DNA of 44,350 bases from an uncultured bacterium. GTDB taxonomy: Bacteria > Chlamydiota > Chlamydiia > Chlamydiales > SM23-39. Positions 14,067 through 40,102 of the stretch are shown here, piece after piece. Positions within the stretch are counted from its first letter, which is position 1, and the number at the start of each line of letters is the position of its first letter. The notes beneath the pieces are model-generated. The model made no database searches. It saw only the letters and a program-made list of their open reading frames with translations, and was not told the DNA's origin. The position numbers were made by a program, and so were the translations under genes. The DNA lies in the NCBI GenBank assembly GCA_964450765.1, contig CAYVDU010000001.1, positions 1 to 44,350 on the forward strand, in the 5' to 3' direction.

Positions 14067-14974
14067 TATATGGCGCGTGCCCCCTTTTTAAATTGGAATC
14101 TGGAAACAAACAAAGCGCCAATTAACCCTGGAATTAAGGTGTTAATTGAAAAAAGCAGAAAGCTTGCATTTGCCGCGGCTTCAGGCGCGATATCAAACCG
14201 GGAAAGTGTCAATATCGAGGTGCCTTCTCTAATACCTATTCCTCCAATGGTCAGAGGAAGGATATTGGTTAAGATAATAATCGGATAAACACACAGAACA
14301 TTGAAAAACTTGATTGCCGTAAATGAGTTAATTAACAAATAAAATTGGAAGATATCGATAAAGGAAGCAAGCAGTCGGAATAACAAGCATGAAATCAAAG
14401 CGCCCGCCGGAATACTGGCCATTCCTCCCAGCATCCCCTGGAGCTTCTCTTTAAACGGCAGAAAATGCAGAATTCTCCCAATAAAAGACAAAAAGAACTT
14501 GGGGGAGAATATAAAAAAAAATCCGGTCAATACGGCTAGAGCGAGGAGGAAAGCAGGCAGGTATCCCAAAAAAACAAAAACACTCCCAATCCCCAACGCA
14601 AGAGTCACTTCCAAGTCGATCAATCTATCCACGAACGCGATCCCCACCAACCTCCCAGCACGTCCATCTCGAATAAAGGCGACACGTCCAAACTCTCCCA
14701 CCCGCCCAGGCGTTAAAAGGCCCAAAGATAATCCACCTAGAAATGATACCAATGCTTCCTTATAAGTCGCATTTTTTGCTTCATGCCGAATCATTCCATA
14801 CCATTTTCTGCTTCCAACAAATACAACCAGAGGAAAACAAAAAAAGGCAAATAAAAATAGATACGGATTGATCGTTTCTATGGTCCTTACAAATCTTTCC
14901 AGGCCGATCTTGCTGACAATAAATCCTACAATTGAAACGGTAAGGATAATTTTTAAGGAGCGTTTAATAGTCAC
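14066..14974 (-). CDS. Lysylphosphatidylglycerol-synthase-TM-region-like (flippase-like, UPF0104) membrane protein
   Basis: 302 aa with about 8 TM segments. Motif LGLLTPGRVGEFGRVAF is typical of this family. Its stop overlaps the GT-C start (TAATG). Confidence 0.55.
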   Translation of the reverse strand: MTIKRSLKIILTVSIVGFIVSKIGLERFVRTIETINPYLFLFAFFCFPLVVFVGSRKWYGMIRHEAKNATYKEALVSFLGGLSLGLLTPGRVGEFGRVAFIRDGRAGRLVGIAFVDRLIDLEVTLALGIGSVFVFLGYLPAFLLALAVLTGFFFIFSPKFFLSFIGRILHFLPFKEKLQGMLGGMASIPAGALISCLLFRLLASFIDIFQFYLLINSFTAIKFFNVLCVYPIIILTNILPLTIGGIGIREGTSILTLSRFDIAPEAAANASFLLFSINTLIPGLIGALFVSRFQFKKGARAI

Positions 14975-19463: not shown

Positions 19464-20108
19464 TTAATTTGCTCCAGACAATAAGGGGATGACGATATGG
19501 TCCAGCAAAGAGTATGCTTTTTTGTTTAAATGAAGACCGTCTCCGCTGGTCAAGTCTGCTCTTAACCTTCGATCTGAATCACTCCTCCTCAAGGCAGCTT
19601 CCAAATCGAGAAGAAAAAAACCCTTCTCTTTCGAATATTTTTTAATCCAGTCATTGTATTCGAGAATATAGCTAAGCCGTTTTTCAAGATTGACTTTGCC
19701 CAGTGGGAAAACTTTCTTCAGAACATCCTTGAAATAGGGCACGCTCAAAAAATCAGGCGCGGTCACCGGCACCACCGTCGTGGGGATGGGGACGATGTTG
19801 TTTTTTGACAATTCCTCGATCCAGCCTTGCATGAGCCGCTTCTGTTTTCCGAAATCACCTGGAAAATAGGCGGCACACTCTTTTAGGAATACCGCGAATG
19901 GTCTATTCGAGGTCCTTTTCGTTATCTGGCTGACCGCTTCGCTTTTGTCGAAATCATATTCACCGATAAACTCAAACGTGTAACCGGTAACGCCGATCCT
20001 CTTCGGCAGCTCAGCGATATTCCAGGCGTGCCCCACCGACGCCCCCACCAAAATAATATGTTTTGTTTCTGAGCCGATCCTATGATTCAAGTCTATTCCC
20101 CTTAACAT
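19464..20108 (-). CDS. SGNH/GDSL-like hydrolase-fold protein (tentative), paralog A, no signal peptide
   Basis: 214 aa. IILVGASVGHAWN (GxS block-I-like) and SGDGLHLNKKAY (DxxH block-V-like). Roughly half the residues are identical to the adjacent ORF by eye. Confidence 0.4.
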   Translation of the reverse strand: MLRGIDLNHRIGSETKHIILVGASVGHAWNIAELPKRIGVTGYTFEFIGEYDFDKSEAVSQITKRTSNRPFAVFLKECAAYFPGDFGKQKRLMQGWIEELSKNNIVPIPTTVVPVTAPDFLSVPYFKDVLKKVFPLGKVNLEKRLSYILEYNDWIKKYSKEKGFFLLDLEAALRRSDSDRRLRADLTSGDGLHLNKKAYSLLDHIVIPLLSGAN

Positions 20109-20113
20109 GGTAG

Positions 20114-20833
20114 TTACTGCAGAGCGAGTTTCGTTTGTTCTTGATGCATGGTTTTCGCTTTCATTATTGTAGGGATAACGATCTTATCCAATAGGGCATA
20201 AGCATCTCGATTTAAATGCATTCCATCCCCACTGGATAACTCCGGTCTTAACCTCCGATCGCTTTCATCCCTCCTGAGGGTACCTTCTAAATCGAGAACA
20301 GCCAAACCTTTTTGATCGGCGTATTTTCTGACCCAATCGTTAAACTCCACAACGTAACTCTGTCTTTTTTCGATATTGATCTTGCCCATCGGCAGATATT
20401 TTTTCATCAGATTTTTAACATATTGTACCGTAAACATCCGAGGAGAGGTCACCGGAACGACCGTTGCCGGAATAGGAATAATCCCGTTTTTTTGAAGGGC
20501 CTCGATCCACTTTTGCATCAGCTCCTTCTGTTCCTCAAACTTGCCGGGGAAATAGGTGGAACACTCCTTTAAAATAACAGCATCAGGTTTTGGATTCCGC
20601 ATCAGGATTTCGTTCAACGCCTTGCTTTTATCGAAAACATACTCGCCGACGAACTCAAAGGTGTATCCTCCCGCGTCGATCCGATTCGGCAATTTCCCGA
20701 TATCCCATCCTTCTCCGATCGAAGCGCCAAGAAGAATGACATGTTTTGTTTGGGGAGTTTCAGCCCCGCTTGTCGCCCCTCCCCCCAAGAGCAGAAGAGA
20801 TAAAACGGCAAAAGCCCCGATTAAGGTTTTCAT
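20114..20833 (-). CDS. SGNH/GDSL-like hydrolase-fold protein (tentative), paralog B, with N-terminal signal peptide
   Basis: 239 aa. Signal-like MKTLIGAFAVLSLLLLGGGATSGAE, then VILLGASIGEGWD and SGDGMHLNRDAY. Confidence 0.4.
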   Translation of the reverse strand: MKTLIGAFAVLSLLLLGGGATSGAETPQTKHVILLGASIGEGWDIGKLPNRIDAGGYTFEFVGEYVFDKSKALNEILMRNPKPDAVILKECSTYFPGKFEEQKELMQKWIEALQKNGIIPIPATVVPVTSPRMFTVQYVKNLMKKYLPMGKINIEKRQSYVVEFNDWVRKYADQKGLAVLDLEGTLRRDESDRRLRPELSSGDGMHLNRDAYALLDKIVIPTIMKAKTMHQEQTKLALQ

Positions 20834-22032
20834 TTTACCCCCATCGACGGTTTATTGTTTCCCAGACCCTCACGCGCCGTGGTCCAGGTGGTATAAGTAT
20901 CTCCTTTTATATACTTGATCCAACCGATAAAGATCGCAATGTTCACCACCATAAAAGTGTGAGACATCGATATCAGCCTGGAAAAATTTTTCATGCGTCT
21001 CGAATAACTGAGGAGACTCAAAATGTAAAAAAACAATTGGACAAGAAAAGCAGCGAGATAGATTATTCCCTGGTTCAGGAGAAAGAGATTTAAAACAAAC
21101 GCGCTTAACAAAAAGAAGGGGACAAGCATCTTACTCACCTTATGAGACAGAAGTTCAAACGAAAAAAAACCGTATTTGAAGGGATTCATTAACCCCCTTT
21201 GGCTTACCAACGCCCGAATGGTCCTGTTGCTGATTCTGACCTGGCGGTTGAATTCTCCTTTCGTTCCCTTTGCAATCTTTTCGATACAGAATGCATTTTC
21301 ATCCAGGATGCCTCGAAATCTTTTTCTGACGATCATCAGAGGAATCACAAAATCGTTGATATCGACACTCTGGAGCGGTTCATACAAGTTTTTTCGAATG
21401 GCGAAGATGGCGCCGTCCGCGCCGACACAAGAACCGGTACGGCTCTCCAAGATCTTGGTGATATTCTCAATTTTCGAGTAGACCCCGATCGAATCGAGCA
21501 TCTTTTCGCCATTTTCGGAAATGTATTTGGTTCCTCCGGTGACAAAACCGATTCGAGGATCGGAAAAATGCGAGACCAATTTTTCGATGGCATCACGGTC
21601 ATATTTTGAATTTGCGTCTGAGAATACGATAATATCCCCCTTCGCCAACGGAACCGCCTTATTAAGGCAGGCGGTCTTTCCGATTCTCCCCTCATACGAT
21701 CGGAGGGTGACCGCCTGAGCGGCATATCGGGTGACGATCTGATCGGTCCGATCGGTCGATCCGTCGGAGATGACGACGATCTCAAAAAGATCTTTTGGAT
21801 AACTTAGCGCGAGCGAATTTAAGAGTTTTTCTTCGATCACTTCTTCTTCATTATAAACAGAGATTAAGAGCGATACTTTGGGCTTGATCTTTCTGGGTTG
21901 AATTTCTTGTTTGTCCCATTTTACAAGAGAGATGAACCACAAAAGAATCGGGTAGCCCACATACGAATAAAAAACAGCGAATACACAAAACCAGAAAAAA
22001 AATGGGAGCATTGTCATATCGCGTTCATCCAC
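20830..22032 (-). CDS. Membrane-anchored GT2 glycosyltransferase (processive-synthase-like layout)
   Basis: 400 aa. N-terminal TM, VSLLISVYNEEEVI, VISDGSTDRT, VFSDANS, then 3-4 C-terminal TM helices. Confidence 0.75.
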   Translation of the reverse strand: MDERDMTMLPFFFWFCVFAVFYSYVGYPILLWFISLVKWDKQEIQPRKIKPKVSLLISVYNEEEVIEEKLLNSLALSYPKDLFEIVVISDGSTDRTDQIVTRYAAQAVTLRSYEGRIGKTACLNKAVPLAKGDIIVFSDANSKYDRDAIEKLVSHFSDPRIGFVTGGTKYISENGEKMLDSIGVYSKIENITKILESRTGSCVGADGAIFAIRKNLYEPLQSVDINDFVIPLMIVRKRFRGILDENAFCIEKIAKGTKGEFNRQVRISNRTIRALVSQRGLMNPFKYGFFSFELLSHKVSKMLVPFFLLSAFVLNLFLLNQGIIYLAAFLVQLFFYILSLLSYSRRMKNFSRLISMSHTFMVVNIAIFIGWIKYIKGDTYTTWTTAREGLGNNKPSMGVK

Positions 22033-22038
22033 ATTGAT

Positions 22039-23268
22039 TCAGCGATTGCTGATCGAACAATTGGCAACCCACCGGAGGTCTTTCGATGGAGACTCTTGGA
22101 CAAGGAGTTGACAAACATTTTTTTTGTCCCACTCCGAAAGATAAGGATGGGTAGGTAACGCCAGAAGCGTCTCCGCCATCCTTTTCGCCACAGGAAAATC
22201 GCTTCCCTTGAAATGGTCCTTGATCTCTTCGATTTCATTGATTGGCACCGGGTACATCAGGCTGAGGCCGAAACCTTGTTTTCGTGAGAGGGCATAAAGC
22301 CGGTCTCGATCTTCATGGCGATTCATCAGAATAGGTAGCCGGAGGTAGGAAACGGCGCTTTCCTTCCTTACCGGTTTCAATTGTAAATGTTCTCTGAAGT
22401 ATGCTGCTGTTTCTGTCCTCTTTTGGTTCGATCGTTCCAGATGTTTCTTCCAGTTTCCCAGGAGAACGGCCTTCATTCCCGACAACTTCTTCACCGGGAA
22501 ATCCCGATGAAAAAACGTCTCCCCTAGTTTAAGAAAGGGAAGACCGGCCGGAAACCAGTAAAGGGCTGGACGAATAAAGAGGGTCATCAGCACAAGCTGT
22601 AGAAATTCCCCGATCGTTTCGCCCATCCGTGGCGCTTCGAGGTCATGATAATACCGACGGATTGCCTCGGCGATCCGGTCAGAATTTGTGACGACGATCC
22701 CGCCTGAACCGCAGGTAATGTTCTTTCCACGGCCCAGGCTAAAAAAACCAACGTCTCCGAGTGTGCCGAGCTTGGCCCTTTTGTAGTTCCCCCCCATTGC
22801 CTGAGCGGCATCTTCGACGACATAGACATCCCTCTCTCTGCAAAGGCGATTGACACGGTCCATATCCGAAGGAATCCCGAAGAGGTGGCTAGGAATGACG
22901 CAGAGGGTATCTTCAGTCACCGCTGCTTCCAGAAGTTGATAATCAAAATCGAAGGTCGAAGCATCAACATCACACAAGGCCACTTCAAGCCCTGCTTTCA
23001 AAATAGCCGAAGGAACGGAAAAACAGGTATACGCCGGAATGACAACCCCTCTCTTCGGGGAAAGCGACTTCAGCGCGAGCAAGATCAACGTTAGCGCCGC
23101 CTTTCCGGATGAAACAAGGAAAAGGTGTTTGACGCCGAAATAGGCTTTCATCTCCTCTTCAATTCGTTGAGTTGAAACGCGATCGGTAAAGAAACCGGTC
23201 AAACCGCGTCCGAGATCTTTCCAATCAAGCGGCGCCGCTGCCGGAGGGATCGTCCTCTGAATTTTCAT
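22039..23268 (-). CDS. DegT/DnrJ/EryC1/StrS-family PLP-dependent sugar aminotransferase
   Basis: 409 aa. VSSGKAALTLIL, VIPAYTCFSVPSAI, VVEDAAQAMGG, FFSLGRGKNITCGSGG (PLP lysine context). Confidence 0.85.
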   Translation of the reverse strand: MKIQRTIPPAAAPLDWKDLGRGLTGFFTDRVSTQRIEEEMKAYFGVKHLFLVSSGKAALTLILLALKSLSPKRGVVIPAYTCFSVPSAILKAGLEVALCDVDASTFDFDYQLLEAAVTEDTLCVIPSHLFGIPSDMDRVNRLCRERDVYVVEDAAQAMGGNYKRAKLGTLGDVGFFSLGRGKNITCGSGGIVVTNSDRIAEAIRRYYHDLEAPRMGETIGEFLQLVLMTLFIRPALYWFPAGLPFLKLGETFFHRDFPVKKLSGMKAVLLGNWKKHLERSNQKRTETAAYFREHLQLKPVRKESAVSYLRLPILMNRHEDRDRLYALSRKQGFGLSLMYPVPINEIEEIKDHFKGSDFPVAKRMAETLLALPTHPYLSEWDKKNVCQLLVQESPSKDLRWVANCSISNR

Positions 23269-24299
23269 GGAAGATTCCTCACGATCGAAGGACCGATCAG
23301 CTTTGTTAGGGCGACCGGAAGTTTTTTCCAGAGATGGATCGCTGCCGCATATTTTGGATTTTTGGGGTTCAACTCTGGAAGCGGCTCTTCATTTCGCATC
23401 CAGTAATACCAATACATCGGAACAGGGTTAGCTCCCCATTGCTCCTTAAATCTGTAAGTCCCTTCCCCCGGTGTCGAGCGGCCGAAATCAAAGACCCGGT
23501 ATCCTCTCTCGCAGGCCAAGCCAAGGGCGGTCCAGTAGAGGAGCATATTGGGGCTGGAGCGGTTGTATCCCTTGAGTGAAGAGGCCCACGGAATTTCAAT
23601 GGTTTCCCGGAACCCGATCAGAAACCCGGAGGCGACCGGAAGCGCGCCTTGGTAAACGGTGCAGATCCAACTCGTGTCTGGAAATGTTTCCAGGATATTT
23701 TTAAAAAATAGCTTCGGATAAACAGGTGTCCCAAGGTCCCGCATGTTTTCAGAGAAAACGGTATAAAAACTGTCCAGTTCGTCGACCTTCCCAATTTTCG
23801 AGACCATCCCTTCTTTCGTTGGTCTGCGAATTTGGCTCCTCAGCTTGGCGTCGAACGTCCTGAAAAGTTCATCACTGTTGGAAGGAAGGGCAAGCCGCAT
23901 CGACACCTTCGCGGTTTTGTATGGAAGACCGATATTCAAAGGGGTCTCTTGCCGCAATTCAATGTGGGACATTCCCTCTTTTTTGGCGCATTGAGCCGCT
24001 TCTTCCAAGAACGCGGTCGTTACGGAATCATCATCGCCGCAAATACCACCATAATTAAAGTAGGGGAGAGAAACCATAAAATTTCCAAAAAGAAAACTTT
24101 TTAGATGAACCGCCGGAAAAACCCCTCGGATATTTCTAAACTGGTCTTCTGCATACCAGTAATAGGTTTTCTGTCCGAAACTCTTTTCAACGACCTCCTT
24201 CCAACCGATATGGTGATACAGGGTCGAAGTGGGAGCGCTTTTGACATATCCTTCCCATCGTGCGAGATCTTTCGGTTGGTATAAAACGACCTTTATCAA
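23265..24299 (-). CDS. FemAB-family acyl/aminoacyl-transferase, PEP-CTERM-locus type
   Basis: 344 aa. N-terminus W..YV...P..TLYHHIGWKEVVEKSFGQKTYYW and C-terminal FDFGRSTPGEGTYRFKEQWGA are characteristic of the FemAB-like family found in exosortase loci. It shares a 4-nt overlap with the DegT gene. Confidence 0.7.
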   Translation of the reverse strand: MIKVVLYQPKDLARWEGYVKSAPTSTLYHHIGWKEVVEKSFGQKTYYWYAEDQFRNIRGVFPAVHLKSFLFGNFMVSLPYFNYGGICGDDDSVTTAFLEEAAQCAKKEGMSHIELRQETPLNIGLPYKTAKVSMRLALPSNSDELFRTFDAKLRSQIRRPTKEGMVSKIGKVDELDSFYTVFSENMRDLGTPVYPKLFFKNILETFPDTSWICTVYQGALPVASGFLIGFRETIEIPWASSLKGYNRSSPNMLLYWTALGLACERGYRVFDFGRSTPGEGTYRFKEQWGANPVPMYWYYWMRNEEPLPELNPKNPKYAAAIHLWKKLPVALTKLIGPSIVRNLP

Positions 24300-24301
24300 T
24301 C

Positions 24302-25390
24302 CTATCTCATCACAATTTTGGCCATCGATTTAAAAAACCGGAGCGTGAGCCAGATCATCAGGGGCCATCTTGGCTTATAAAAATGGAGTCCAAGGGAGCG
24401 GTCTCCTCGATCAGCCCAATGGAACTTATACTCCTCGTACCCTTTGAGAAAATTATACTCCGAATACCCTTCGGTAATCGCTTTTTCAATCGAAAGTCCC
24501 ACCAAGATATTTCCAATGCTGATATTTTTATTGAACGAATGGTCTACCGCCATCAGATACATCAAAAGGCTCTCTCCGCAGCGTAAATGCAAGAGTCCGG
24601 CGATGGTTTTTCCATCCACATTCAAGAGATCGAGCTGAACTTTGTCCTCTCCCTGAGAATGAAGAAGAACCTTCTCAACAAAGAGAAGAAGCTCATCTGC
24701 ATTGTCCCACCGCTGTTGATAAAGTGCCTTGAAGTCCTTGAGCACCGGCCCGATCTTCTCCCGTCTCAAGGAGTCATGACGAACCGCCCCTTCTCGCTCT
24801 AATAGCCTCAAGTGCCTTGAATATTGTTGTCTCCTATTAGGAGACAACCGCGCCAAAAAGTCTTCACGTGTTTTGGGAAGAACGAGGGAAGGGCAAAAAG
24901 CCCCTGCTTCCACCTCGGAATACTTTCCGTCTTCCTGCATCTGCTCTATAAAGTGAAGGAGAAATAAAGAATCGGACGGGACATCCAAAAACCCGAAACA
25001 GTCCCACTGAGAAACGGCTTCTTCAAAAAGAAACCGATAGATCGACCGGGCGACCTCTTTCTCTTTCCCCTTCTTTGCGAAAACATCCAGATAGTCCGAC
25101 CCCGCCTCCGGCGTCCCGAGAAACTCGATCCGCCTCATCGGGAATCCGCCATATCGGATTTTCCGTATGCACCAAGGGGCAATACCAATGAGGGTGTTCT
25201 CATTGTGAACCGTCAGAATATAGAGTTTACTGTCTTCTTTCAGGAAGACCTCTGCCCAGGGGTAGAGCCATTCCCATGTGAGAAAAATGCGATCCGACCC
25301 CGACCGACGAAGGAGATCGTTCCACTCTTTGGAAAGTGCTTGCCACCCTTCCATCGAAGTGACAATATTTATTTTGTGATCGCGGCTCAT
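24302..25390 (-). CDS. CelD/BcsL-like GNAT (FemAB-like fold) acyltransferase
   Basis: 362 aa. GWQALSKEWNDLL...IFLTWEWLYPWAEVF...LIGIAPW and C-terminal YNFLKGYEEYKFHWA resemble the Acetyltransf_6/CelD family. Confidence 0.6.
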   Translation of the reverse strand: MSRDHKINIVTSMEGWQALSKEWNDLLRRSGSDRIFLTWEWLYPWAEVFLKEDSKLYILTVHNENTLIGIAPWCIRKIRYGGFPMRRIEFLGTPEAGSDYLDVFAKKGKEKEVARSIYRFLFEEAVSQWDCFGFLDVPSDSLFLLHFIEQMQEDGKYSEVEAGAFCPSLVLPKTREDFLARLSPNRRQQYSRHLRLLEREGAVRHDSLRREKIGPVLKDFKALYQQRWDNADELLLFVEKVLLHSQGEDKVQLDLLNVDGKTIAGLLHLRCGESLLMYLMAVDHSFNKNISIGNILVGLSIEKAITEGYSEYNFLKGYEEYKFHWADRGDRSLGLHFYKPRWPLMIWLTLRFFKSMAKIVMR

Positions 25391-26946
25391 TGCGGCAAGA
25401 ACTCCGGAAGCAATGGCCGGATTGCTTTGATGAATGATTGACTCTGAACCGATTGCTTCAAAAGATCCTCCGGATGAGAAAAATCAGCGGTTACCATCAC
25501 GATAGCGCCGTCAGTTCTTGCTTGCAACAACGACCCGATCATCGTCTCTTTTTTCGCTTGATACCAATCGGCAACGTCGCGGCCATGCAGATAATACCAA
25601 AATAGGGTCAGTTTCTTTGGATTTCCGTCCTCTATCACACGATTCACTTCAATCAGGTGATTGTCATCAAGGCTTATTCTTATCTTTTCGGCATTGCGAT
25701 GGAGTCCGGAGACTTTATAGTTAATCAGCTTTTTTTCACGATCCTGGGACGCATAATACCCAACATACAAACGAAGGGAATCTCCGGTGTTTGTCTGATA
25801 GCTCCTTGAAAGTTCTTCATCCACCCCAAAAGTACGATAGAACAAATAATCTGGTGATGTTTCTTTCCCAAACCACTCTGCCAGTTGAATGGGAAAATTC
25901 TTTAAAGGCGCCTTTAATGGCGTCGGTTGCTGTTGATAGAGATGAAGGTAACTCCCTATCAGGAACAAGACGGCAGAAAGAAAGAGCCCTATGTTGGGGA
26001 GCTCAGTTTTTTTTAGAACGAGCCCTGGTCTGTTTTTCGGATTGAATGCTTTGGCCGACAGTGCCGAAGGCGCAGCAGGCTTCGACAGAATCCACACCCC
26101 CGCAAAAATCGTCCCATAACCGATCAGGGAGACAGAAAGTCCCTGTAGAACGTGGAAGGGACCGTGAAGATCTCCTGCAATGCCGTAATACGAAAGTGCC
26201 CCAATCAGGGCAACCCGGAGTACATTACTGAAGGCCGCAATGGTGACGGAAAACCCAAGAAGAAGGGTCCTTCTCCACCATCCAATCAAAAAAAGATAGG
26301 CCATGGGAATTCCGATTGCAATCACTGCAATCAGATAGTTGACCCCGCTACAAATATCGGCCACTTCCAGGGTGATATTTGGTAATTCAATATAGACTCC
26401 ATTTCGATAGACAGGGATACCGAAAAACCGTAGAAGCCGCGTCCCCAGATTCGCCGAAAAAAATTGAAAGGGAAGATGAAGCCGTTCTGTAATAAATCCC
26501 CAAAGCGGAATCATAAAAAGAAGATAGGCGATTGGAAACCACAAGTAACGAAGCGACCCCCCCCCCAACATCAGAAGAACGGCCCCCATCAGGGTCACGA
26601 TCAGCGAGAGTTCTTCAAGCAAGGCAATGCTGCTCGCGTGACCGACGACCAGCATCGATAAACCGGCCAGAAAGAGGAGACCCCCTTTAAGATAGTCCGG
26701 CGCCGGTTCGATCTCGCGGAGCTTTTCTCTTTGGACCCAAACCAGATAAAGGCTGATCCAGGGGATGAGAAAACCATACGAATAGATGTCGTTGCTCCAC
26801 CAGAGGCGGACCAAGGTCATAAACACCTGGACATAACAAAACACGAGGGCGAACAGGAGCAGTCCCGCCGACCCCAGAACTTGCCAATTGATTAAAAAAG
26901 TCTCTTTGGCATTCGAAAGAATGACCGATTTTTCTGAAAGCTTCAT
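25387..26946 (-). CDS. Exosortase (EpsH family) fused to a C-terminal EpsI-family domain
   Basis: 519 aa. YSYGFLIPWISLYLVW entry motif, and candidates for the invariant triad: ADICSGVNYL (Cys199, codon 26350..26352), NVLRVALIG (Arg244), LHGPFHVLQG (His261/265). About 8 TM helices in aa 1-290. After one more TM helix comes a soluble domain of about 200 aa (...YVGYYASQ...FWYYLHG...). Confidence 0.85.
   Translation of the reverse strand: MKLSEKSVILSNAKETFLINWQVLGSAGLLLFALVFCYVQVFMTLVRLWWSNDIYSYGFLIPWISLYLVWVQREKLREIEPAPDYLKGGLLFLAGLSMLVVGHASSIALLEELSLIVTLMGAVLLMLGGGSLRYLWFPIAYLLFMIPLWGFITERLHLPFQFFSANLGTRLLRFFGIPVYRNGVYIELPNITLEVADICSGVNYLIAVIAIGIPMAYLFLIGWWRRTLLLGFSVTIAAFSNVLRVALIGALSYYGIAGDLHGPFHVLQGLSVSLIGYGTIFAGVWILSKPAAPSALSAKAFNPKNRPGLVLKKTELPNIGLFLSAVLFLIGSYLHLYQQQPTPLKAPLKNFPIQLAEWFGKETSPDYLFYRTFGVDEELSRSYQTNTGDSLRLYVGYYASQDREKKLINYKVSGLHRNAEKIRISLDDNHLIEVNRVIEDGNPKKLTLFWYYLHGRDVADWYQAKKETMIGSLLQARTDGAIVMVTADFSHPEDLLKQSVQSQSFIKAIRPLLPEFLPQ
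26557..26566 (-). repeat. G10 homopolymer (C10 on the plus strand) inside the exosortase coding frame
   Basis: Plus strand aagcgaCCCCCCCCCCaaca. The minus strand reads TTG GGG GGG GGG TCG, encoding LGGGS at aa 127-131. Confidence 0.95.
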
Positions 26947-26978: not shown

Positions 26979-27965
26979 TTAGATGAGGATCTCACCCACC
27001 TCTTCGACCAGTAATGGTTTGGAATGCATATAGCGGGTGGCGTTTCTCTTGACATCGATATCCCGATAAACCCGTTCTACCTGTTGAGGAGTTAAGCCAA
27101 CCTCTTCTGCAGCCTCGGCGGTGGAAACCCCCGCATTTTTTGCGTAAAGACAGAGATCCATTTTGTCGTAGGGAAGGGAGAAATAAAACTCCTCCTGCGA
27201 CTGTGGTAATGAATAGGTATCGGTCGTCGGCGGACGCTGACGAATTTCAGCCGGAACACCCAAATAGGCCGCTAATTGATAGACCTGCGTTTTATAAAGA
27301 TGGGCAATTGGTTTGATGTCGGCCAAACCATCCCCACCTTTCACAAAAAACCCCTGATCGTATTCCAACCGATTTGGCGTTCCCGCTACAACATATTGCA
27401 GCCGGTCTGCATGGTAGTATTCAAAAAATTTTCTGGCGCGCTGCTTCATGTTTGTCGCGGCAACAATTCCAAGATATGACTTTACATTCAAGCGAACCGT
27501 CTGCTGTTCTCCCTTTGGCGATTCAATGACCAAGTGAAAGAAATTAAAACCGTCTTTCTCTAGGATGTTGGCCAAGACGATCTTCGATTTATATCCCTTT
27601 CCATATTCAGGGACTTGAGCCCGGATCGCTTCGTCTCTTCGTTGATAACATCCTGCCGCTTGTAGGAGAGGTCCGATATCTTCAAGGACGCTATCGATGC
27701 CAAGAGAATCGGCCAGAAGGCGGCCGAGCTTTATGCTGTCGTCAGAGGAATCCAGTTCCGGCATGAACAGTCCCAAGACCCGCTCACGCCCCAACGCCTT
27801 GGCGCAAAGGGCGGCAGTCACGCTGCTGTCAATACCGCCTGACAGGCCAACAACCACCCCTCTCCTTTTTAATTTGTGAAACACCTGCTCTCGTAAGATC
27901 TCCTCAATTTCCTGGGAAACCTGAGCGGTATCGATATTTAAAACTTCTTTCGAAAATTTTTTCAT
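26979..27965 (-). CDS. NadE-like PP-loop ATP-pyrophosphatase (NAD+ synthetase family)
   Basis: PP-loop VVVGLSGGIDSSVTAAL, GTPNRLEYDQGFFVKGGDGLADIKPIAHLYKTQVYQLAAYLGVP. I prefer the ATG at 27965 (AGGAG about 10 nt upstream) over the track's GTG at 28028, which lies inside the ligase gene. Confidence 0.8.
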   Translation of the reverse strand: MKKFSKEVLNIDTAQVSQEIEEILREQVFHKLKRRGVVVGLSGGIDSSVTAALCAKALGRERVLGLFMPELDSSDDSIKLGRLLADSLGIDSVLEDIGPLLQAAGCYQRRDEAIRAQVPEYGKGYKSKIVLANILEKDGFNFFHLVIESPKGEQQTVRLNVKSYLGIVAATNMKQRARKFFEYYHADRLQYVVAGTPNRLEYDQGFFVKGGDGLADIKPIAHLYKTQVYQLAAYLGVPAEIRQRPPTTDTYSLPQSQEEFYFSLPYDKMDLCLYAKNAGVSTAEAAEEVGLTPQQVERVYRDIDVKRNATRYMHSKPLLVEEVGEILI

Positions 27966-27978
27966 CGACAGTGTACTC

Positions 27979-29490
27979 CTAATGGGCTGTCCGCACCGGT
28001 ACTTTGAATGCGGCCCGACTGATTTCACGAAGCTCCTGCCTCAAGACCTTGCCGGAGAAAGATTTGGGAAGTTCCTTCACCAGACAAATCGCCTTGGGCC
28101 TTTTATAAGGGGCCAGATGTCGGGCGCAATAAGCAAGCAGTTCCATATCGGTTGGTTGATGGTCTTGTTTTGGGGAAACCACGCCGCAGATCGCCTCTCC
28201 CAAAACTGGGTCATCGACACCGACGACACCAGCTTCTCGGACACCTGGATGACTCAGGAGCACTTCTTCAATTTCAACAGGGCTGATACGGTATGCGCCT
28301 GATTTGATCATCTCACAGTTACGGCCGACGATCGTCAGATATCCCTCTTCATCCATACATCCCATGTCCCCGGTTCGAAGCCACCCACCTTGCAAGACTT
28401 TGGCGGTCGACTCCGGATCTTTCCAGTAGCCTTGCATGATATTTTCTCCGAAGGCATGGATCTCTCCAACCGCACCCGGTTTGGCAGCCTCTCCCCCCTC
28501 TTTTACGATTTTCAGGGTCACGCCCGGGATCGCTCTTCCTGCAGATCTCCCTCTTTGAAGAAGATCCTCAGGAGGCAGGAAGGCTAACCTTGCTGTCGCT
28601 TCGGTTTGACCATACATTAGATAGATTTTTTTCTCGGGAAAAACAGCCCGCAGCCGCTTCAGGAGTTCAGAGGGCATCGGCCCGCCGGCATTCGTCAGGT
28701 AACGCAACGTTGGAAATGGATGGTTTTTAAGATTCGCTTGGTTCAATAGAAGGGCATATGTGGATGCCACGCCGGAGAAACCGCTCACCTGTTCTTTTCC
28801 GATCCTTTCCAGAATGAGGTTTGGATAGACGAAGCTATTTTCAATGACCAGTTTTCCCCCGACAAATAAATGTGTGAGCATGACCGAGTTCCCGTAAGCA
28901 TAGACAAACGGGAGGACTGCCACGATGGAGTCTTCCGGACTCAGCTGAAGATAAGCCAGGATAGAGCGGGTATTTGCGATCAAGTTTTGATGAGAAAGCA
29001 TCACCCCCTTCGGCCGCCCCGTTGAGCCGGAGGTGTAGATGATTTGAGCCAGTTCAACCGGACTTTTTTCCGTCTCACCGTGGAACCGATTTGGGATGAG
29101 CTCATTTTCTCTTAAAATAAATTGCAGACAGGTTGACTTAAAATCGTTGGAAAACCATTGGCGTATGGAGGGAGAGACAATTAAAGCTTTCGCGCCAACA
29201 TGGGAGATCGTCCTCGAAACTTCCGACACGGAAGCCTGTGGATGAAGGGCGATGACACTTCCTCTCCGATTCATCACTGCCAGATAGGCGGCGATATATT
29301 GGGCAGAATTCTCCATCCATAAAAGGGCTCGATCCCCTTCGGAAAATCCCGCTTCAGACAGCTTTATCTCAAGATCGGCGGCACATCCCCCCAAATCGGC
29401 ATAGGTCCAATGGTGTTCTTTATGAACAACAGCCACCCTCTTTGGCCAGCGGTCGATTGTGTGCGCGATGATCTCTTCCAATCTCATCAT
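27979..29490 (-). CDS. AMP-forming acyl-CoA/acyl-ACP ligase, exosortase-locus type
   Basis: 503 aa. AMP-binding motif IYTSGSTGRPKGVMLSH, YGQTEA, GWLRTGDMG, and a C-terminal K in ...LPKSFSGKVLRQEL. Confidence 0.85.
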   Translation of the reverse strand: MMRLEEIIAHTIDRWPKRVAVVHKEHHWTYADLGGCAADLEIKLSEAGFSEGDRALLWMENSAQYIAAYLAVMNRRGSVIALHPQASVSEVSRTISHVGAKALIVSPSIRQWFSNDFKSTCLQFILRENELIPNRFHGETEKSPVELAQIIYTSGSTGRPKGVMLSHQNLIANTRSILAYLQLSPEDSIVAVLPFVYAYGNSVMLTHLFVGGKLVIENSFVYPNLILERIGKEQVSGFSGVASTYALLLNQANLKNHPFPTLRYLTNAGGPMPSELLKRLRAVFPEKKIYLMYGQTEATARLAFLPPEDLLQRGRSAGRAIPGVTLKIVKEGGEAAKPGAVGEIHAFGENIMQGYWKDPESTAKVLQGGWLRTGDMGCMDEEGYLTIVGRNCEMIKSGAYRISPVEIEEVLLSHPGVREAGVVGVDDPVLGEAICGVVSPKQDHQPTDMELLAYCARHLAPYKRPKAICLVKELPKSFSGKVLRQELREISRAAFKVPVRTAH

Positions 29491-29756
29491 GTGGTTCCTG
29501 TGACGACTCCTGATTTTTTCTGAACAAACCGAGTGAGCCGAGAGATAGTATCGAAGTTTTCTGGAAGGATTTCTTCATCATTGACGGTGATACCAAAAAC
29601 CTCCTCAACAAAGGAAACCAGATGGACGACTCCTGTCGAATCGATGATCCCCTTTTCCAAGAAAGACTCTTCGTCGCCTAATGTTTTAGATGTGTCCCCG
29701 AAAAGAAAAGTATCGGTAATGAATGCACACAACCGCTCTTTGATTGAGTTTCCCAA
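29487..29756 (-). CDS. Acyl carrier protein
   Basis: 89 aa. Phosphopantetheine site context GIIDSTGVVHLVSFVEE (Ser40). Shares a 4-nt overlap with the ligase gene. Confidence 0.75.
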   Translation of the reverse strand: MGNSIKERLCAFITDTFLFGDTSKTLGDEESFLEKGIIDSTGVVHLVSFVEEVFGITVNDEEILPENFDTISRLTRFVQKKSGVVTGTT

Positions 29757-29846
29757 AGATATCCCTCCGGTTCTTAATATATGTAAGTATACCTTCTGTT
29801 TTGCGTTTTGAAGCGTGATACGATTTTCCGTTACGTGTATGAAGAG

Positions 29847-31832
29847 CTATTTAAGACTTAAAAACGAATCTCCAGGGAATACGGCATTGAGATCCGGTTT
29901 CTTCTTTTTTATAAACTGCTCGTACAGCAGTTGAACCGACAAAGATCCAACCAGTGCCATCCCATCTTTTATCCCCATTTTTTCTTGACGGCGGCACCGT
30001 GCGAGAAGCCCATTCAGTGGTTTTGTTGAAAAGATGCCGGCATCATCGAGTCGCCCCGGAGAGAAGGCTTCGTCTACATAACCGAATCCTTTCCCATTTG
30101 GGAAAAGAGCGGCCTGGTCCGGAGCACGGTAAGGTTGTTTTTCTCTATTCAGAATCGCAGACGGTAATTTCCCTTCGGCACCCTGGCGTAGAACATGCTT
30201 TTCTCTCAAGCATTTCAACTTGAAATGAGGCGGAATGGTTGCGGCAAATTCGACGACCCGATGATCTAAAAACGGATAACGGCCTTCGACGCCGTGCGCC
30301 ATTGCCATCCGGTCTCCTTGCGAAGCGAGAATATATCCAGGAAGAAGGTAGGCCGATTCGAGATACTGAGCTTGTGAGAGGGGATGCCACGTTGAGAAGG
30401 CCAACGGCAACTCATCTCGAAGCTCGGCGATAGGATCGTATCCCTTCAATGCTTCCTTCATCTTCTCGGAGTAAAGACCTTTTAAGGAAGAAGTTACTCG
30501 CCAGCGAGGAGCGTGGGAATAGAAGGGATCATTCGTTTCTTCCAAGCCCTGACCGAAGAAGGCGGTTAGATATGCGGCGGCTTGTCCCTTCATCTCGGAA
30601 AGATATGGATAAAGGCGCCGCAACAGGAGGGGACGCATCCGAGATTTGGGTGCTTGAGCCCAGAACCGTCGTACCTTCGCTTCCTTAAATATATCATACC
30701 CGGCCAGGACCTCATCCGCCCCCTCCCCGGTGAGAACGACTTTGATTCCTGCTTCGCGGACCCCTTTTGCCAGGAGCATCATCGGAACTGGTGCCGTTCG
30801 AATGATTGGTCTTTCTGTGTGCCAGATCGCTCTCGGGAAAACCTCGCCGATCTGCGTGCTACTGCATCGAAAGGCATGATGTTCTGTGCCAAGATGGCGA
30901 ACAACCATCGATTGAAAGGCGCTCTCATCAAAGTCTTTGGCTTCGAATCCGATCGAAAATGTTTTTAACCGATCATTGATTCGGTGCCTGGAAAGGGCGG
31001 TGATCACGGAAGAGTCGAGCCCTCCACTAAGATATGTGCCGACCGGAACATCGGCGCGAAGGCGAATCTTCACCGCTTCGTCCAAAAGCTGCATCAAAGT
31101 CTCGGTGTACCATTTTTCGGGGTGAGGATGAGACAGTCTGGACTCTTCCATCGAAGGGAACGGAAGGTCCCAGTACTGGTCGATCCGGGTTCCCCTTTCG
31201 CTCACTGTCATTGTGTGACCGGGGGGGAGCTCGTTCACTCCGATGAAACCGGTCCGGGGAGGGATCGGAAACCAAAACGTGAAGACCTGATCGATAGCAA
31301 AGGGATCGATTTCCCTTGGAAGAGTCGGGTCTTCAAAAAGGGCCTTGATCTCCGAACCGAAAAGAAGGCTTCCATTGTGCTCGGTATAAAAGAGCGGCCT
31401 CACTCCCATTCGATCTCTTGCGAGAAGGAGTTCGCGCCGTCTTCCATCCCATAGGGCAAAAGCAAATTGGCCATTGAATTCCCTGACGCAGTTTTCACCC
31501 AGCTCTTCATAAGCATGCACGATTACTTCAGTGTCTGAACCGGTCTTAAAGGTGTGTCCCTTAATGATCAGGGATGATCTGAGTTCATGGTGGTTATAGA
31601 TTTCCCCGTTGAAAACGACCCAGATCGAACCATCCTCATTGCACATTGGTTGATGCCCACCGGAAAGGTCGACGATGCTGAGCCGGGTATGTCCCAACCC
31701 GAGATCATTCGAGAGGTAGGTTCCTGAATCGTCCGGACCGCGATGATCGAGTGTTCCAACCATTCGATCTAAGAGAGCCCGATTTACAGGCACTTTTGAA
31801 ATTATATTCCAAATGCCAGCTATTCCGCACAT
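29847..31832 (-). CDS. Asparagine-synthase-family glutamine amidotransferase (AsnB-like), exosortase-locus type
   Basis: 661 aa. N-terminal nucleophile MCGIAGIW, GHQPM, and PP-loop-like YLSGGLDSSVI in the synthetase domain. Confidence 0.9.
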   Translation of the reverse strand: MCGIAGIWNIISKVPVNRALLDRMVGTLDHRGPDDSGTYLSNDLGLGHTRLSIVDLSGGHQPMCNEDGSIWVVFNGEIYNHHELRSSLIIKGHTFKTGSDTEVIVHAYEELGENCVREFNGQFAFALWDGRRRELLLARDRMGVRPLFYTEHNGSLLFGSEIKALFEDPTLPREIDPFAIDQVFTFWFPIPPRTGFIGVNELPPGHTMTVSERGTRIDQYWDLPFPSMEESRLSHPHPEKWYTETLMQLLDEAVKIRLRADVPVGTYLSGGLDSSVITALSRHRINDRLKTFSIGFEAKDFDESAFQSMVVRHLGTEHHAFRCSSTQIGEVFPRAIWHTERPIIRTAPVPMMLLAKGVREAGIKVVLTGEGADEVLAGYDIFKEAKVRRFWAQAPKSRMRPLLLRRLYPYLSEMKGQAAAYLTAFFGQGLEETNDPFYSHAPRWRVTSSLKGLYSEKMKEALKGYDPIAELRDELPLAFSTWHPLSQAQYLESAYLLPGYILASQGDRMAMAHGVEGRYPFLDHRVVEFAATIPPHFKLKCLREKHVLRQGAEGKLPSAILNREKQPYRAPDQAALFPNGKGFGYVDEAFSPGRLDDAGIFSTKPLNGLLARCRRQEKMGIKDGMALVGSLSVQLLYEQFIKKKKPDLNAVFPGDSFLSLK

Positions 31833-31890: not shown

Positions 31891-32841
31891 TTACGAGTGA
31901 GGACCCGCTCCAACAGTGCAGGATTGATATTCCGTTGCCTTTCCCAAAAGAGGGGCCTGGGTCATTATTTTTTCTTTCAAGGTGCGGAGAGGGGCAAACC
32001 GGAAGTCTTGAAGCAGTTGCCGGAGACGTGGTTCGGTCTTATTAAGATTGACATAATGTCGGAAACGGGACCGAAAACTTCCGTTAATCCGGGGTTGGAT
32101 CGGGTCAATCTCCCATGGGTGGAGGTAAACGTTGGCTGGAATCCCCTCATGATCATTGAGGCGACGGATCGCCCATTGACTATACCGATAGGGGAAGAGA
32201 CGGAAATAGCCTCCCCCTGCGGCCGGTACATTCCACCCCATGATCCGAACCGTTGATAAAGGAAATTCCAGGAGTCGGGCACCATTCGAAAGCGAATGAA
32301 AATAAGGATAACGACGTGCGTTCGGAATGCCATAAAGATCGTGATGGATTGGGAAGATACTCGAATCATATTCGAATCCAATTTTCTGGAGGAAATCGAG
32401 ACACCAGAGGGTTTCACGGATAATCGAATAGCTCGGGGCTCGGTAGCCAATCACTGGGATACCGCTGAGATTTTCTAAAATTTCTTTTGATCGCTGTGTA
32501 TCCTCCTTGAACTCCTCTCGGCTCATTCGATAAATAAGGCGGTGCCGATAGCCGTGAGAGGCGATTTCATGCCCCTCTTTTTGGATGGCGAGCACCAGTT
32601 GAGGATATTTCTCTGCGATCCAGCCGAGAATGAAAAAAGTCGCTTTCACTTGGTAGAAATTTAGAATCTCGATGATTCGCCATGTATTGGCAACCACCCT
32701 ACTCTCATGACGACTCCAATCTTCAAAGCGGATTTGCGGCTCAAAAGCGGCTACTTGATAATAATCTTCAACATCAATCGTCAACGCATTGACAACATCC
32801 AAGGGACCTGGGAGGAGCCGTCTTTCAGGCGCCGGTTTCAA
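31891..32841 (-). CDS. Polysaccharide deacetylase, PEP-CTERM-locus subfamily
   Basis: 316 aa. NALTIDVEDYYQV..., KATFFILGWIAEKYP and IASHGYRH are typical of the deacetylase subfamily seen in exosortase loci. Confidence 0.8.
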   Translation of the reverse strand: MKPAPERRLLPGPLDVVNALTIDVEDYYQVAAFEPQIRFEDWSRHESRVVANTWRIIEILNFYQVKATFFILGWIAEKYPQLVLAIQKEGHEIASHGYRHRLIYRMSREEFKEDTQRSKEILENLSGIPVIGYRAPSYSIIRETLWCLDFLQKIGFEYDSSIFPIHHDLYGIPNARRYPYFHSLSNGARLLEFPLSTVRIMGWNVPAAGGGYFRLFPYRYSQWAIRRLNDHEGIPANVYLHPWEIDPIQPRINGSFRSRFRHYVNLNKTEPRLRQLLQDFRFAPLRTLKEKIMTQAPLLGKATEYQSCTVGAGPHS

Positions 32842-34175
32842 CGGGCTCCCTCCCGGCTAAAAACCACCTTAATGGTTTCGATCACGATTGTCAGATCAAA
32901 AACAGGAGAAAGATGTTTAATATAATAGAGGTCGAATTGAAGTTTTTCGAGGGCATCCTCTTCTGTCGCCCCGTAAGAATACTTTACCTGGGCCCATCCG
33001 GTTAAACCCGGTTTTACGCTGAAACGGAGATCATAATAAGGAATTTTTTTCCGAAGTTGGTCCACAAAAAGTGGTCGTTCCGGTCGGGGTCCCACGAAGC
33101 TCATCTCCCCTTTTAAAACATTGATCATCTGGGGGATTTCATCGAGACGAAGCATCCGCATAATCCTGCCCAGTCGTGTCACGCGAGGGTCATTTTGACT
33201 CGCCCAGACTGGACCGGTTCCACGTTCTGCGTCTTGATGCATCGACCTGAATTTGATCACCATGAAGAGTTTCCCATTTTCTCCAACTCGTTCTTGTCGA
33301 TAGAAAATCGGCCCTCGTGAGTCAAGTTTGATCAATACGCTTAGGGCCAGAAAAACAGGTGATAAAAGGATCAGTCCGGTTGAAGCAAGAAGAAGGTCAA
33401 GAAGATGCTTGGCAAGCCTCATCATGGTTAGTCGGTTGAATCCTTCGCTGAAAATCAAACTACTGGGCCTCAGAAATTTGACAAGGATTTTTCCGGAGAT
33501 CTTCTCGTAGAAGGAGATCCCCTCGACCACCTCTACGCCCTGCACGCGAAGCCGGAGGAGGGCTTCGACGGGAAGCTGCCTTCTTCGATCATCCAGTGCG
33601 ATCACTACCTTACGAATATCATGTTCTTTAAGGATGTTCTCCAGTTTTACCCATTCCTCGCCAAGCTTATCTGGAATATCGGGATTCCATTTAAACTGTG
33701 TCGGAAGGTATCCGAGGCCTTGCTGGTGGGTTAAGGTTTCCACAATAAGCGTCCCAAGCGGACCAGATCCGATGATCAAAATAGGCGTATCCCAATGTTG
33801 TGTAGAGACCAGGGTCTGGTATCCCAGGCGTAGTCCGATGAGCACAACGGGAAAAAGAGCCAAGTAATTCCAAAAGTACCGCGATGCTACAAATTCAGAA
33901 GGTACCAGCAAATAGATCGCAAACAAGATCCCCGCCGCCAGGACGATTGCCCGTAAATGTTTGATCCAAAATTCCTTGAGAGAAAAGCGAGGGAAAGACG
34001 GCCGGAGCTCATTATAGTAGAGAGAAATCTGCACAACCAATGGGACAAGAAGGAGCCCATCCCATCTGATCCCCGTTTTAGTCCACCAGATCAAAAACAG
34101 GAAGATCAGCATGTTTTCAAAAATAAAATAAATGGTATCCCGAATGGGAAAATATCGATTAAAGATTCTGATCAT
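32838..34175 (-). CDS. Priming polyprenyl-phosphate glycosyl-1-phosphate transferase (bacterial sugar transferase, EpsB/WbaP-like)
   Basis: 445 aa. N-terminal TM helices and a Rossmann-like linker. The C-terminal Bac_transf domain carries LLSPVFLALSVLIKLDSRGPIFYRQERVG, DEIPQMINVLKGEMSFVGPRPERP and KPGLTGWAQV. Confidence 0.9.
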   Translation of the reverse strand: MIRIFNRYFPIRDTIYFIFENMLIFLFLIWWTKTGIRWDGLLLVPLVVQISLYYNELRPSFPRFSLKEFWIKHLRAIVLAAGILFAIYLLVPSEFVASRYFWNYLALFPVVLIGLRLGYQTLVSTQHWDTPILIIGSGPLGTLIVETLTHQQGLGYLPTQFKWNPDIPDKLGEEWVKLENILKEHDIRKVVIALDDRRRQLPVEALLRLRVQGVEVVEGISFYEKISGKILVKFLRPSSLIFSEGFNRLTMMRLAKHLLDLLLASTGLILLSPVFLALSVLIKLDSRGPIFYRQERVGENGKLFMVIKFRSMHQDAERGTGPVWASQNDPRVTRLGRIMRMLRLDEIPQMINVLKGEMSFVGPRPERPLFVDQLRKKIPYYDLRFSVKPGLTGWAQVKYSYGATEEDALEKLQFDLYYIKHLSPVFDLTIVIETIKVVFSREGAR

Positions 34176-36512: not shown

Positions 36513-36558
36513 TTCCCCTGGTGTCCTCTCTTAAATCTTCTCGGTGGTATGTCTAAGA

Positions 36559-39629: not shown

Positions 39630-39648
39630 CTTTGCGAAGAGAGGGGTT

Positions 39649-40092: not shown

Positions 40093-40102
40093 GGAAAAAC
40101 CG

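Follow-up and report, generated by a model that had tools for sequence, protein, structure and literature searches.

A DegT aminotransferase and two Fem-fold transferases beside exosortase W: a possible sugar-amine acylation module in a bacterial exopolysaccharide locus

To which acceptor does an exosortase attach the PEP-CTERM proteins that it cleaves? As late as 2025, a study of cyanoexosortase B still regarded the acceptor as unknown; in it, a PF01041 aminotransferase gene lies immediately upstream of the cyanoexosortase B gene crtB of Nostoc (PMC12188702). The question is raised again by a 44,350-nucleotide stretch of DNA from an uncultured bacterium (contig CAYVDU010000001.1, positions 1 to 44,350; hereafter the window), in which four consecutive minus-strand open reading frames (ORFs) encode exosortase W (XrtW), two acyltransferases of the Fem fold (named here GNAT6 and FemAB), and a DegT-type aminotransferase (hereafter DegT; Table 1). 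The original prediction for this locus held that the aminotransferase and the two transferases are translationally chained to the exosortase and build a short aminoacyl or peptidyl acceptor on a sugar or lipid, by analogy with sortase and lipid II. We propose tentatively, with somewhat less than even confidence, that the four genes form the centre of one XrtW-type exopolysaccharide (EPS) operon of a bacterium related to Ca. Manganitrophus (Nitrospirota), in which DegT and the Fem-fold pair constitute a cytoplasmic sugar-amine acylation module that resembles the Wbp/Vim pathway and serves XrtW.

To identify the two transferases, profile scans and structure models were combined. FemAB belongs to TIGR03019, the FemAB family associated with the XrtA/PEP-CTERM system, and GNAT6 to PF13480 (Acetyltransf_6, "CelD-BcsL" type); the two families named in the original prediction were both recovered (381 bits for TIGR03019 with FemAB and 74 bits for PF13480 with GNAT6). 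FemAB also matched PF13480 (56.8 bits versus a cutoff of 22) and PF02388 FemAB (37.6 bits versus a cutoff of 24, with only 74 residues aligned), and the scans of GNAT6 gave no match to any NCBIfam model or to PF02388. AlphaFold2 models of both proteins were of high confidence (predicted local distance difference test scores of 93.9 for FemAB and 93.0 for GNAT6). In a Foldseek search of the PDB, the top match of FemAB was FemX of Weissella viridescens (FemX_Wv; template modeling (TM) score 0.69–0.71, E ~1e-17), followed by Staphylococcus aureus FemX, Sbb17/Sba18, FemA, and the aminoacyl-phosphatidylglycerol synthase domains of MprF. FemX_Wv also headed the matches of GNAT6 (TM score 0.59–0.64), followed by Sba18, S. 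aureus FemX, and aminoacyl-phosphatidylglycerol synthase domains. Single-sequence and profile searches of PDB sequences with GNAT6 found nothing meaningful, and the fold comparison alone succeeded. The best structural neighbours of both proteins are all aminoacyl-tRNA-dependent transferases, with acetyl-CoA-dependent tandem GNAT proteins ranking lower. The two proteins are FemAB/CelD-fold acyltransferases, as predicted, and both adopt a FemX-like double-GNAT fold in the models.

The active-site lysine of the Fem enzymes has a counterpart in both proteins. The FemAB family profile matched the FemX sequence with E = 1.6e-9 and aligned Phe284-Lys285, which is invariant in 45 FemAB sequences, with Phe304-Lys305 of FemX. 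Lys305 is described as the sole residue of the FemX active site that is reactive, and its equivalent in DhpH-C is essential (PMC12945691). Across the GNAT6 family (55 sequences), neither Lys322 nor Trp325 varies, and Tyr321 is conserved in at least 90%. A MAFFT alignment of the C-terminal domains placed Tyr321-Lys322-x-x-Trp325 of GNAT6 on Phe284-Lys285-x-x-Trp288 of FemAB and on the Phe-Lys pair of FemX. We preferred this register because the invariant lysine and tryptophan line up with FemAB and FemX, and the spacing to the flanking β-strands in the models of FemAB and GNAT6 agrees with it; an hhalign register (79% probability) that ended at the aromatic residue and put His324 on the catalytic lysine, one residue off, was rejected. 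FemAB and GNAT6 share the double-GNAT fold, the aromatic-lysine dyad, and the lack of an acetyl-CoA motif with FemX, FemA, FemB, MurM, and their relatives VlmA, DhpH-C, PacB, Orf11, and Sbb17/Sba18, and like FemX_Wv they have no coiled-coil arm. They differ from the FemX family in their low identity (10–17%), in acceptor-binding residues that are off register (FemX Lys36 versus Val37), and in an EPS context rather than one of peptidoglycan or antibiotics. Neither protein has a signal peptide or transmembrane segment, so aminoacyl-tRNA would be accessible to both. Strongly hydrophobic segments are likewise absent from the carbohydrate esterase family 4 deacetylase (CE4) and the AsnB-type amidotransferase encoded further upstream, and DegT has a single one, within an insertion described below; because no such segment lies outside that insertion, these two proteins and DegT, together with FemAB and GNAT6, are predicted to be cytoplasmic. 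As judged from sequence profiles and models, FemAB and GNAT6 are compatible with tRNA-dependent aminoacyl transfer, and GNAT6 appears to represent a second, uncurated Fem-fold family.

The same evidence bears on the acyl donor. One or both Fem-fold proteins, most likely GNAT6, might instead use acyl-CoA or a ligase-loaded acyl carrier protein (ACP), in a WbpD-like N-acylation or an AlmEFG/Dlt-like route. PF13480 is annotated as a GNAT acetyltransferase family, homologs of GNAT6 carry the public names "GNAT family N-acetyltransferase" or "CelD/BcsL family acetyltransferase" (JGI), and tandem-GNAT acetyltransferases do occur lower in the Foldseek lists. In addition, genes for an ACP and an AMP-forming ligase are located 2.5 kb upstream, and many XrtW loci contain them as well. 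With a gene for a NadE-like enzyme they form a cassette (26979..29756) directly upstream of XrtW, which was found again in loci L001, L005, L007, L136, L121, L053, L065, and L084 and could possibly supply an alternative acyl donor. However, the acetyl-CoA P-loop motif [QR]xxGx[GA] is absent from both FemAB and GNAT6, the lysine aligned with the Fem catalytic lysine is invariant, the top structural neighbours all use aminoacyl-tRNA, and many GNAT6 loci (L140–L164) have neither ACP nor ligase in their available flanks. For this last reason, the idea that GNAT6 always requires the ACP and AMP-ligase as partners is unsupported, and we consider an acyl-CoA or ACP donor unlikely. As a separate observation, the AsnB-type amidotransferase gene joins the cassette in the recurring loci (26979..31832 in the window).

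Beyond the close orthologs of GNAT6, the wider PF13480-type superfamily comprised 22,219 representative proteins at E ≤ 0.001, of which only about the top 50 fell in the orthologous score range. Many relatives (P0291, P0293, P0296, P0298, P0300, and others) are 650–1085 residues long with two matched stretches, apparently as the result of a tandem fusion of Fem-fold proteins or of fusion with other domains.

DegT is a divergent member of the DegT/DnrJ/EryC1-type aminotransferases. Its pyridoxal phosphate-binding residue, Lys182, lies in the motif FFSLGRGK and aligned with the equivalent lysine of PDB 7b0d. Among solved structures, DegT is closest to 7b0d (scyllo-inosose aminotransferase), QdtB, and WbpE, with WbpE (112 bits) behind the other two. 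All NCBIfam equivalogs scored far below their cutoffs (at best 137 bits versus a cutoff of 375), and these scores gave no orthology to the characterised enzymes WecE, PseC, ArnB, LegC, or DesI. An inserted hydrophobic stretch of about 45 residues (positions 206–251 of the protein), with the motif LxLxxMxxFIxPxLYWFPxGLPFLKLGET (general form YWxPxxLPFLxLGET), is missing from the aligned solved DegT structures and was kept in all 63 FemAB-associated orthologs examined. The insertion could serve in membrane association or as a lid over the substrate, and would then mark a new subfamily of DegT. The nearest genome is that of Ca. Manganitrophus sp. GAC4, with identical gene order and a FemAB identity of 85%. 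In this genome (CP114561, locus L005 10936..12251), the DegT ortholog is split over two overlapping frames, reflecting a frameshift, a pseudogene, or an assembly error.

XrtW combines an eight-transmembrane exosortase domain with a fused periplasmic EpsI/DUF3485 domain. Eight hydrophobic segments were found, Cys199 stands in the context ADICSGVNY, and the EpsI part (residues 325–517) matched TIGR02914 (EpsI) and PF11984. A literature search on XrtW found nothing. PEP-CTERM substrates were rare in the related loci described below, with only three in about 160.

Is the packing of these genes a mark of coupling to the exosortase? Inspection of the ORFs and junctions bore out the coordinates and spacing of the original prediction, namely, ATGA overlaps of 4 nt at 25387–25390 (XrtW/GNAT6) and 23265–23268 (FemAB/DegT) and a 2-nt gap at 24300–24301 (GNAT6/FemAB). 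In public annotation, the PF13480 gene (P0001, 350 residues) begins at an ATG 12 codons downstream, a start that would abolish one of these overlaps. The longer GNAT6 start is favoured because many homologs cover the long form over 100% of its length and because residues 5–10 lie inside the first β-strand of the AlphaFold2 model. The TTG start of FemAB is supported by the lengths of its homologs (343–344 residues at 100% coverage). The idea of translational chaining to the exosortase as a distinctive feature did not hold up: junctions that overlap or are separated by no more than 6 nt form an unbroken run from 19460 to 25390 and occur elsewhere in the window, and about 11 of 30 same-strand junctions across the window are equally tight. 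We therefore rejected the 4-nt overlaps as a sign of special exosortase coupling, since the entire operon is packed alike. In a scan from 17.5 to 32 kb, promoter-like sites were at the shuffled level, and 26 terminator-like sites were found versus 17.9 ± 4.8 in shuffled sequence (1.7 standard deviations above), all weak and all intragenic; the scan gives neither an operon boundary nor proof of a single transcript. The four genes are part of a long, compact EPS operon in which tight spacing is not special, and the non-random feature is the conserved co-occurrence of their gene families in other genomes.

This co-occurrence was analysed in 80 loci seeded with FemAB from GTDB genomes and 80 seeded with GNAT6 from metagenomes, which are the best 80 matches of each scan and not a random sample. 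The loci were annotated with hidden Markov models and with phmmer queries from the window proteins in flanks of up to 10 kb, and counts were made on the 46 FemAB loci whose flanks reached 6 kb or more on either side and on 16 GNAT6 loci with good flanks. A TIGR03006-type CE4 deacetylase gene was found within 10 kb in 61% of the FemAB loci and an ortholog of this DegT in 39%, with at least one of them in 39 of 46 (85%). The gene directly beside FemAB was CE4 alone, upstream, in 16 of the 46 loci and DegT alone, downstream, in 12, and both flanked it in 2 (30 of 46 in total), which is the pattern expected if FemAB acylates a sugar amine. Half of the FemAB-seeded loci also contain an ortholog of the membrane glycosyltransferase that follows DegT in the window (hereafter GT2), usually in the order FemAB-DegT-GT2 or CE4-FemAB-GT2. 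The linkage of DegT and FemAB claimed in the original prediction is thus a conserved adjacency in related loci.

GNAT6 orthologs are rarer (4% of the FemAB loci) but closely tied to the other families. Where GNAT6 was the seed, FemAB was present in 94% of the loci, DegT in 94%, CE4 in 81%, and an exosortase in 75%. At least five gene orders were seen: Xrt-GNAT6-FemAB-DegT, CE4-GNAT6-FemAB-DegT, Xrt-DegT-FemAB-x-GNAT6, CE4-FemAB-Xrt-GNAT6-DegT, and FemAB-GNAT6...DegT. A correlation of the gene pair with exosortase subtype, raised alongside the original prediction, proved positive among these best-match loci, in that all 10 exosortases sampled from loci with both DegT and FemAB scored above the XrtW cutoff. 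The exosortases of FemAB loci lacking this DegT were XrtA-like, and two Desulfobacterota loci pair DegT with an XrtA-type exosortase. GNAT6 matches PF13480 as do the CelD/BcsL proteins (COG5653) of cellulose loci, but no cellulose synthase genes lie near it, and its orthologs are tied to FemAB, DegT, and XrtW. BcsA and BcsB were not found in the window, and CelA models gave only 25–31 bits on GT2. Some XrtW loci carry a third, more distant PF13480-type gene directly after the exosortase (59–129 bits to the GNAT6 profile; L001 6720..7886, L086 1302..2516, L111 2683..3825, and L136 5365..6579), with the true GNAT6-FemAB-DegT set a few genes further on.

These neighbourhoods would also fit a module that makes the same N-aminoacyl or N-acyl amino sugar solely as an EPS decoration affecting charge, metal binding, or resistance to phages and grazing, with the exosortase as a mere co-resident. 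FemAB-DegT-GT2 and CE4-FemAB-GT2 sets are common without an exosortase within 10 kb (Nitrospira loci L019, L023, and L039; Bacteroidota loci L016 and L020), close gene spacing is a general property of this operon, and no PEP-CTERM substrate is encoded nearby. On the other hand, TIGR03019 was named after its PEP-CTERM association, the GNAT6/DegT set tracks XrtW in all 10 cases tested, even though the gene order is shuffled among them, and a precedent from type IX secretion (the T9SS) gives such a sugar an acceptor role (PMC7468200). Decoration alone is a real possibility, which we nevertheless judge rather improbable.

The T9SS precedent is close in its chemistry. The C-termini of T9SS cargo proteins are amide-bonded to a 2-N-seryl- or 2-N-glycyl-3-N-acetyl-(gluc/mann)uronic acid or amide, and this linking sugar is made by WbpA, WbpB, WbpE, WbpD, VimE (CE4), VimA, and WbpS (AsnB type) and joined to the cargo by a sortase-like enzyme (Veith et al. 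2020, PMC7468200). In Porphyromonas gingivalis, VimA sets whether serine or glycine is placed on the linking sugar, and it matches TIGR03019 according to the same study (PMC7468200). The linking sugar terminates a pentasaccharide linker, and its transfer was assigned to VimF, a glycosyltransferase encoded beside vimA and vimE (Veith et al. 2026, PMC13086638). The FemAB-(DegT)-GT2 order in the window is reminiscent of VimF next to vimA and vimE. Counterparts of the classes of VimA (by the reported TIGR03019 match), VimE (CE4), WbpE (DegT), and WbpS (AsnB type) are all present with an adjacent glycosyltransferase, and both gene sets accompany a C-terminal protein-sorting transpeptidase. The two systems differ in that the exosortase is unrelated to PorU, two Fem-fold enzymes stand in place of one, DegT is not a WbpE ortholog, and no orthologs of WbpA, WbpB, or WbpD were identified in the window. 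The T9SS linking sugar is a closer parallel than the sortase/lipid II analogy of the original prediction, and it gives the mechanism a real precedent (PMC7468200).

The other point of reference is the XrtA-type PEP-CTERM/EPS locus, for which TIGR03019 is a curated associated family (Haft et al. 2006, PMC1569441; later TIGRFAMs/NCBIfam curation). The window resembles such loci in having a FemAB above the TIGR03019 cutoff in an EPS locus, with XrtW 1 kb upstream in the same operon, and in carrying PrsT, TIGR03007, a tyrosine kinase, TIGR03013, TIGR03006, an AsnB-type enzyme, a ligase with ACP, and stp-type GT4 glycosyltransferases. It differs in having XrtW with a fused EpsI domain, a second Fem-fold paralog, and an insertion-bearing DegT, and these features co-vary with XrtW. 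Veith et al. noted a deacetylase-FemAB-exosortase-AsnB arrangement in PEP-CTERM loci and speculated that an amino-acid-modified sugar is the exosortase acceptor (Veith et al. 2020, PMC7468200).

A sugar need not be the acceptor of the Fem-fold enzymes, which might act on a membrane lipid head-group or a peptidoglycan precursor, the exosortase acceptor, if any, then being an aminoacylated lipid. MprF aminoacyl-phosphatidylglycerol synthase domains are among the structural neighbours, the window contains an LPG_synthase_TM flippase-like gene, and rhombosortase joins its substrate to a glycerophosphoethanolamine-containing moiety (Veith et al. 2020, PMC7468200). By contrast, the conserved immediate neighbours of FemAB are the sugar-modifying CE4, DegT, and GT2 and not lipid synthases, and FemX outscores the aminoacyl-phosphatidylglycerol synthases; we regard a non-sugar acceptor as very unlikely.

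By analogy with the Wbp/Vim pathway, DegT, CE4, FemAB, GNAT6, and GT2 most likely form a module whose product, an N-aminoacylated amino sugar, is destined for the EPS or for its linker. In the reading that we tentatively prefer, in which this module serves XrtW, DegT would convert a keto-sugar to an amino sugar, and the TIGR03006-type CE4 deacetylase, which corresponds functionally to VimE and is another possible origin of a free amine on the sugar, might release a second amine. FemAB would then place an amino acid, most likely from aminoacyl-tRNA, on a sugar amine, leaving a free α-amino group, and GNAT6 would add a second residue or acylate the second amine. GT2, a candidate transferase for the modified sugar, would load it on the lipid-linked EPS unit, which Wzx would flip and Wzy polymerise. 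At the outer face of the inner membrane, the XrtW cysteine would cleave PEP-CTERM proteins, and the sugar-borne amine would resolve the acyl-enzyme to give a protein-EPS amide. The acyl donor, the acceptor sugar, and the steps of loading and protein attachment are those that we infer; the use of a sugar amine by XrtW to resolve the acyl-enzyme, entirely so inferred, is attractive and has a precedent by analogy. A more specific version, in which the XrtW acceptor is a sugar with two amines derived from DegT and CE4, a separate tRNA-dependent Fem-fold enzyme loads each amine or extends one of them to a dipeptide, and XrtW amide-links proteins to this sugar, seems improbable to us as it stands.

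Several observations weigh against the reading that we prefer. A regular-expression scan found no PEP-CTERM-like C-terminus in any ORF of the window, and substrates may lie elsewhere in the genome. Only 28–39% of the FemAB loci have an exosortase within 10 kb, and 9 of the 11 loci with DegT and without CE4 have none within 10 kb of the FemAB-DegT-GT2 module. Among the window ORFs of at least 150 residues that were scanned, no WbpA/WbpB-type dehydrogenase or 4,6-dehydratase was found that would provide a keto-sugar to DegT, and the window holds no tRNA genes. DegT itself is not a WbpE ortholog, given its far sub-cutoff equivalog scores and unique insertion. No TIGR03019 or PF13480 protein of an exosortase system is known to have been characterised biochemically. 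The mechanism of the original prediction stands in part: its gene identities and folds are borne out, and the conserved lysine, the FemAB-DegT pair, and the tracking of XrtW support it, whereas the link to exosortase products is unsupported, with no PEP-CTERM substrate in the window.

Table 1. Principal genes of the XrtW-type EPS locus in the window, with positions, strand, protein length, and supporting profile matches.
Feature	Positions	Strand	Length (residues)	Evidence
Exosortase W (XrtW): 8-transmembrane exosortase domain with fused periplasmic EpsI/DUF3485 domain	25387..26946	-	519	NF038142 573 bits vs cutoff 425; PF09721, PF11984
GNAT6: PF13480 Acetyltransf_6, "CelD-BcsL" type	24302..25390	-	362	PF13480 74 bits vs cutoff 22
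FemAB: FemAB family XrtA/PEP-CTERM system-associated protein	23265..24299	-	344 (TTG start)	TIGR03019 381.2 bits vs cutoff 260.35, residues 13-344
DegT: divergent DegT/DnrJ/EryC1-type pyridoxal phosphate-dependent aminotransferase	22039..23268	-	409	PF01041 204.8 bits; Lys182
GT2: membrane glycosyltransferase, PgaC/NodC-like	20830..22032	-		TIGR03937 81 bits and TIGR03111 57 bits, both below cutoff; four hydrophobic segments
NadE-like ATP-pyrophosphatase	26979..28028	-		PRK00876 523 bits vs cutoff 313
AMP-forming acyl ligase	27979..29490	-		TIGR03098 346 bits (below cutoff); PRK06187 361 bits
ACP-like protein	29487..29756	-		Weak PP-binding match
Glutamine-dependent AsnB-type amidotransferase	29847..31832	-		TIGR01536 536 bits vs cutoff 267; TIGR03108 480 bits, below cutoff 817
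XrtA-system CE4 polysaccharide deacetylase	31891..32841	-		TIGR03006 390 bits vs cutoff 276; PF01522 and DUF3473 matches
Priming polyprenyl-phosphate glycosylphosphotransferase, PEP-CTERM EPS pathway	32838..34175	-		TIGR03013 416 bits vs cutoff 393

Taken together, the genes of the window make up a single XrtA-like EPS locus, encoded on the minus strand. Its gene order runs from PrsT, the chain-length determinant (TIGR03007), a tyrosine kinase, the TIGR03013 priming transferase, and the TIGR03006 CE4 deacetylase through the AsnB-type amidotransferase, ACP, AMP-ligase, and NadE-like enzyme to XrtW, GNAT6, FemAB, DegT, and GT2, followed by SGNH-like proteins, a second deacetylase, a hexapeptide acetyltransferase, Wzy, Wzx, stp-type GT4 glycosyltransferases, and WecB. 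The AsnB-type amidotransferase is a WbpS-like candidate for uronamide formation, by analogy. Canonical XrtA loci carry a Wza/OPX-type gene beside the chain-length determinant; no such export protein was recognised among the scanned window ORFs of at least 150 residues. No Rfam family matched anywhere in the window.

Further features of the locus were noted along its length. PrsT and the chain-length determinant are separated by 694 nt of AT-rich intergenic DNA (36513..37206), which contains no ORF of 50 or more residues and likely holds a terminator and, after it, the promoter of the operon. An inverted repeat within it (~37020–37090; catcctgagcgtgtcgag...ctcgacacgctcaggatg), long and near-perfect, had no Rfam match. 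Two adjoining paralogous ORFs of 214 and 239 residues (19464..20833), with weak, sub-threshold matches to SGNH/GDSL hydrolases, may encode EPS O-acyl esterases or transferases. Within the EPS operon, the LPG_synthase_TM (MprF-type flippase-like) gene (14066..14974) overlaps by 1 nt a gene for a PMT_2/GT39-like membrane glycosyltransferase (12327..14974 together). The distal end of the locus (1817..4421) encodes a PGA_cap protein (CapA-like; PF09587, 200 bits) and a PaaK/F390-synthetase-like adenylating enzyme, and the ORFs 39511..40314 and 43171..44061 matched no family. The G+C content is 0.55 over the first 2 kb of the window, then falls to 0.40, and is 0.40–0.51 in the EPS locus versus 0.55–0.57 at both window ends; the ORF at 134..832 gave a weak match to the rve integrase core (24 bits, below cutoff).

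The core idea of an amino-acid-modified sugar as exosortase acceptor and the association of the TIGR03019 family with such loci are already published, and the window is a further example and not a discovery in this respect. New are the XrtW-specific quartet of XrtW, DegT, FemAB, and GNAT6, the uncurated second Fem-fold family to which GNAT6 is assigned by profiles and models, and the alternation of DegT and CE4 beside FemAB. The idea is now easier to test, as the XrtW quartet is defined, an amine-generating enzyme almost always flanks FemAB, and both paralogs keep the Fem-aligned lysine. Should the acceptor be a product of the FemAB/DegT module, the chemical logic of the T9SS would also apply to PEP-CTERM sorting, through unrelated transpeptidases. 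If the two-amine sugar of XrtW were true, the long-sought exosortase acceptor would be identified, and the anchoring of proteins via a sugar-borne amino acid, seen in the T9SS, would have a second independent case.

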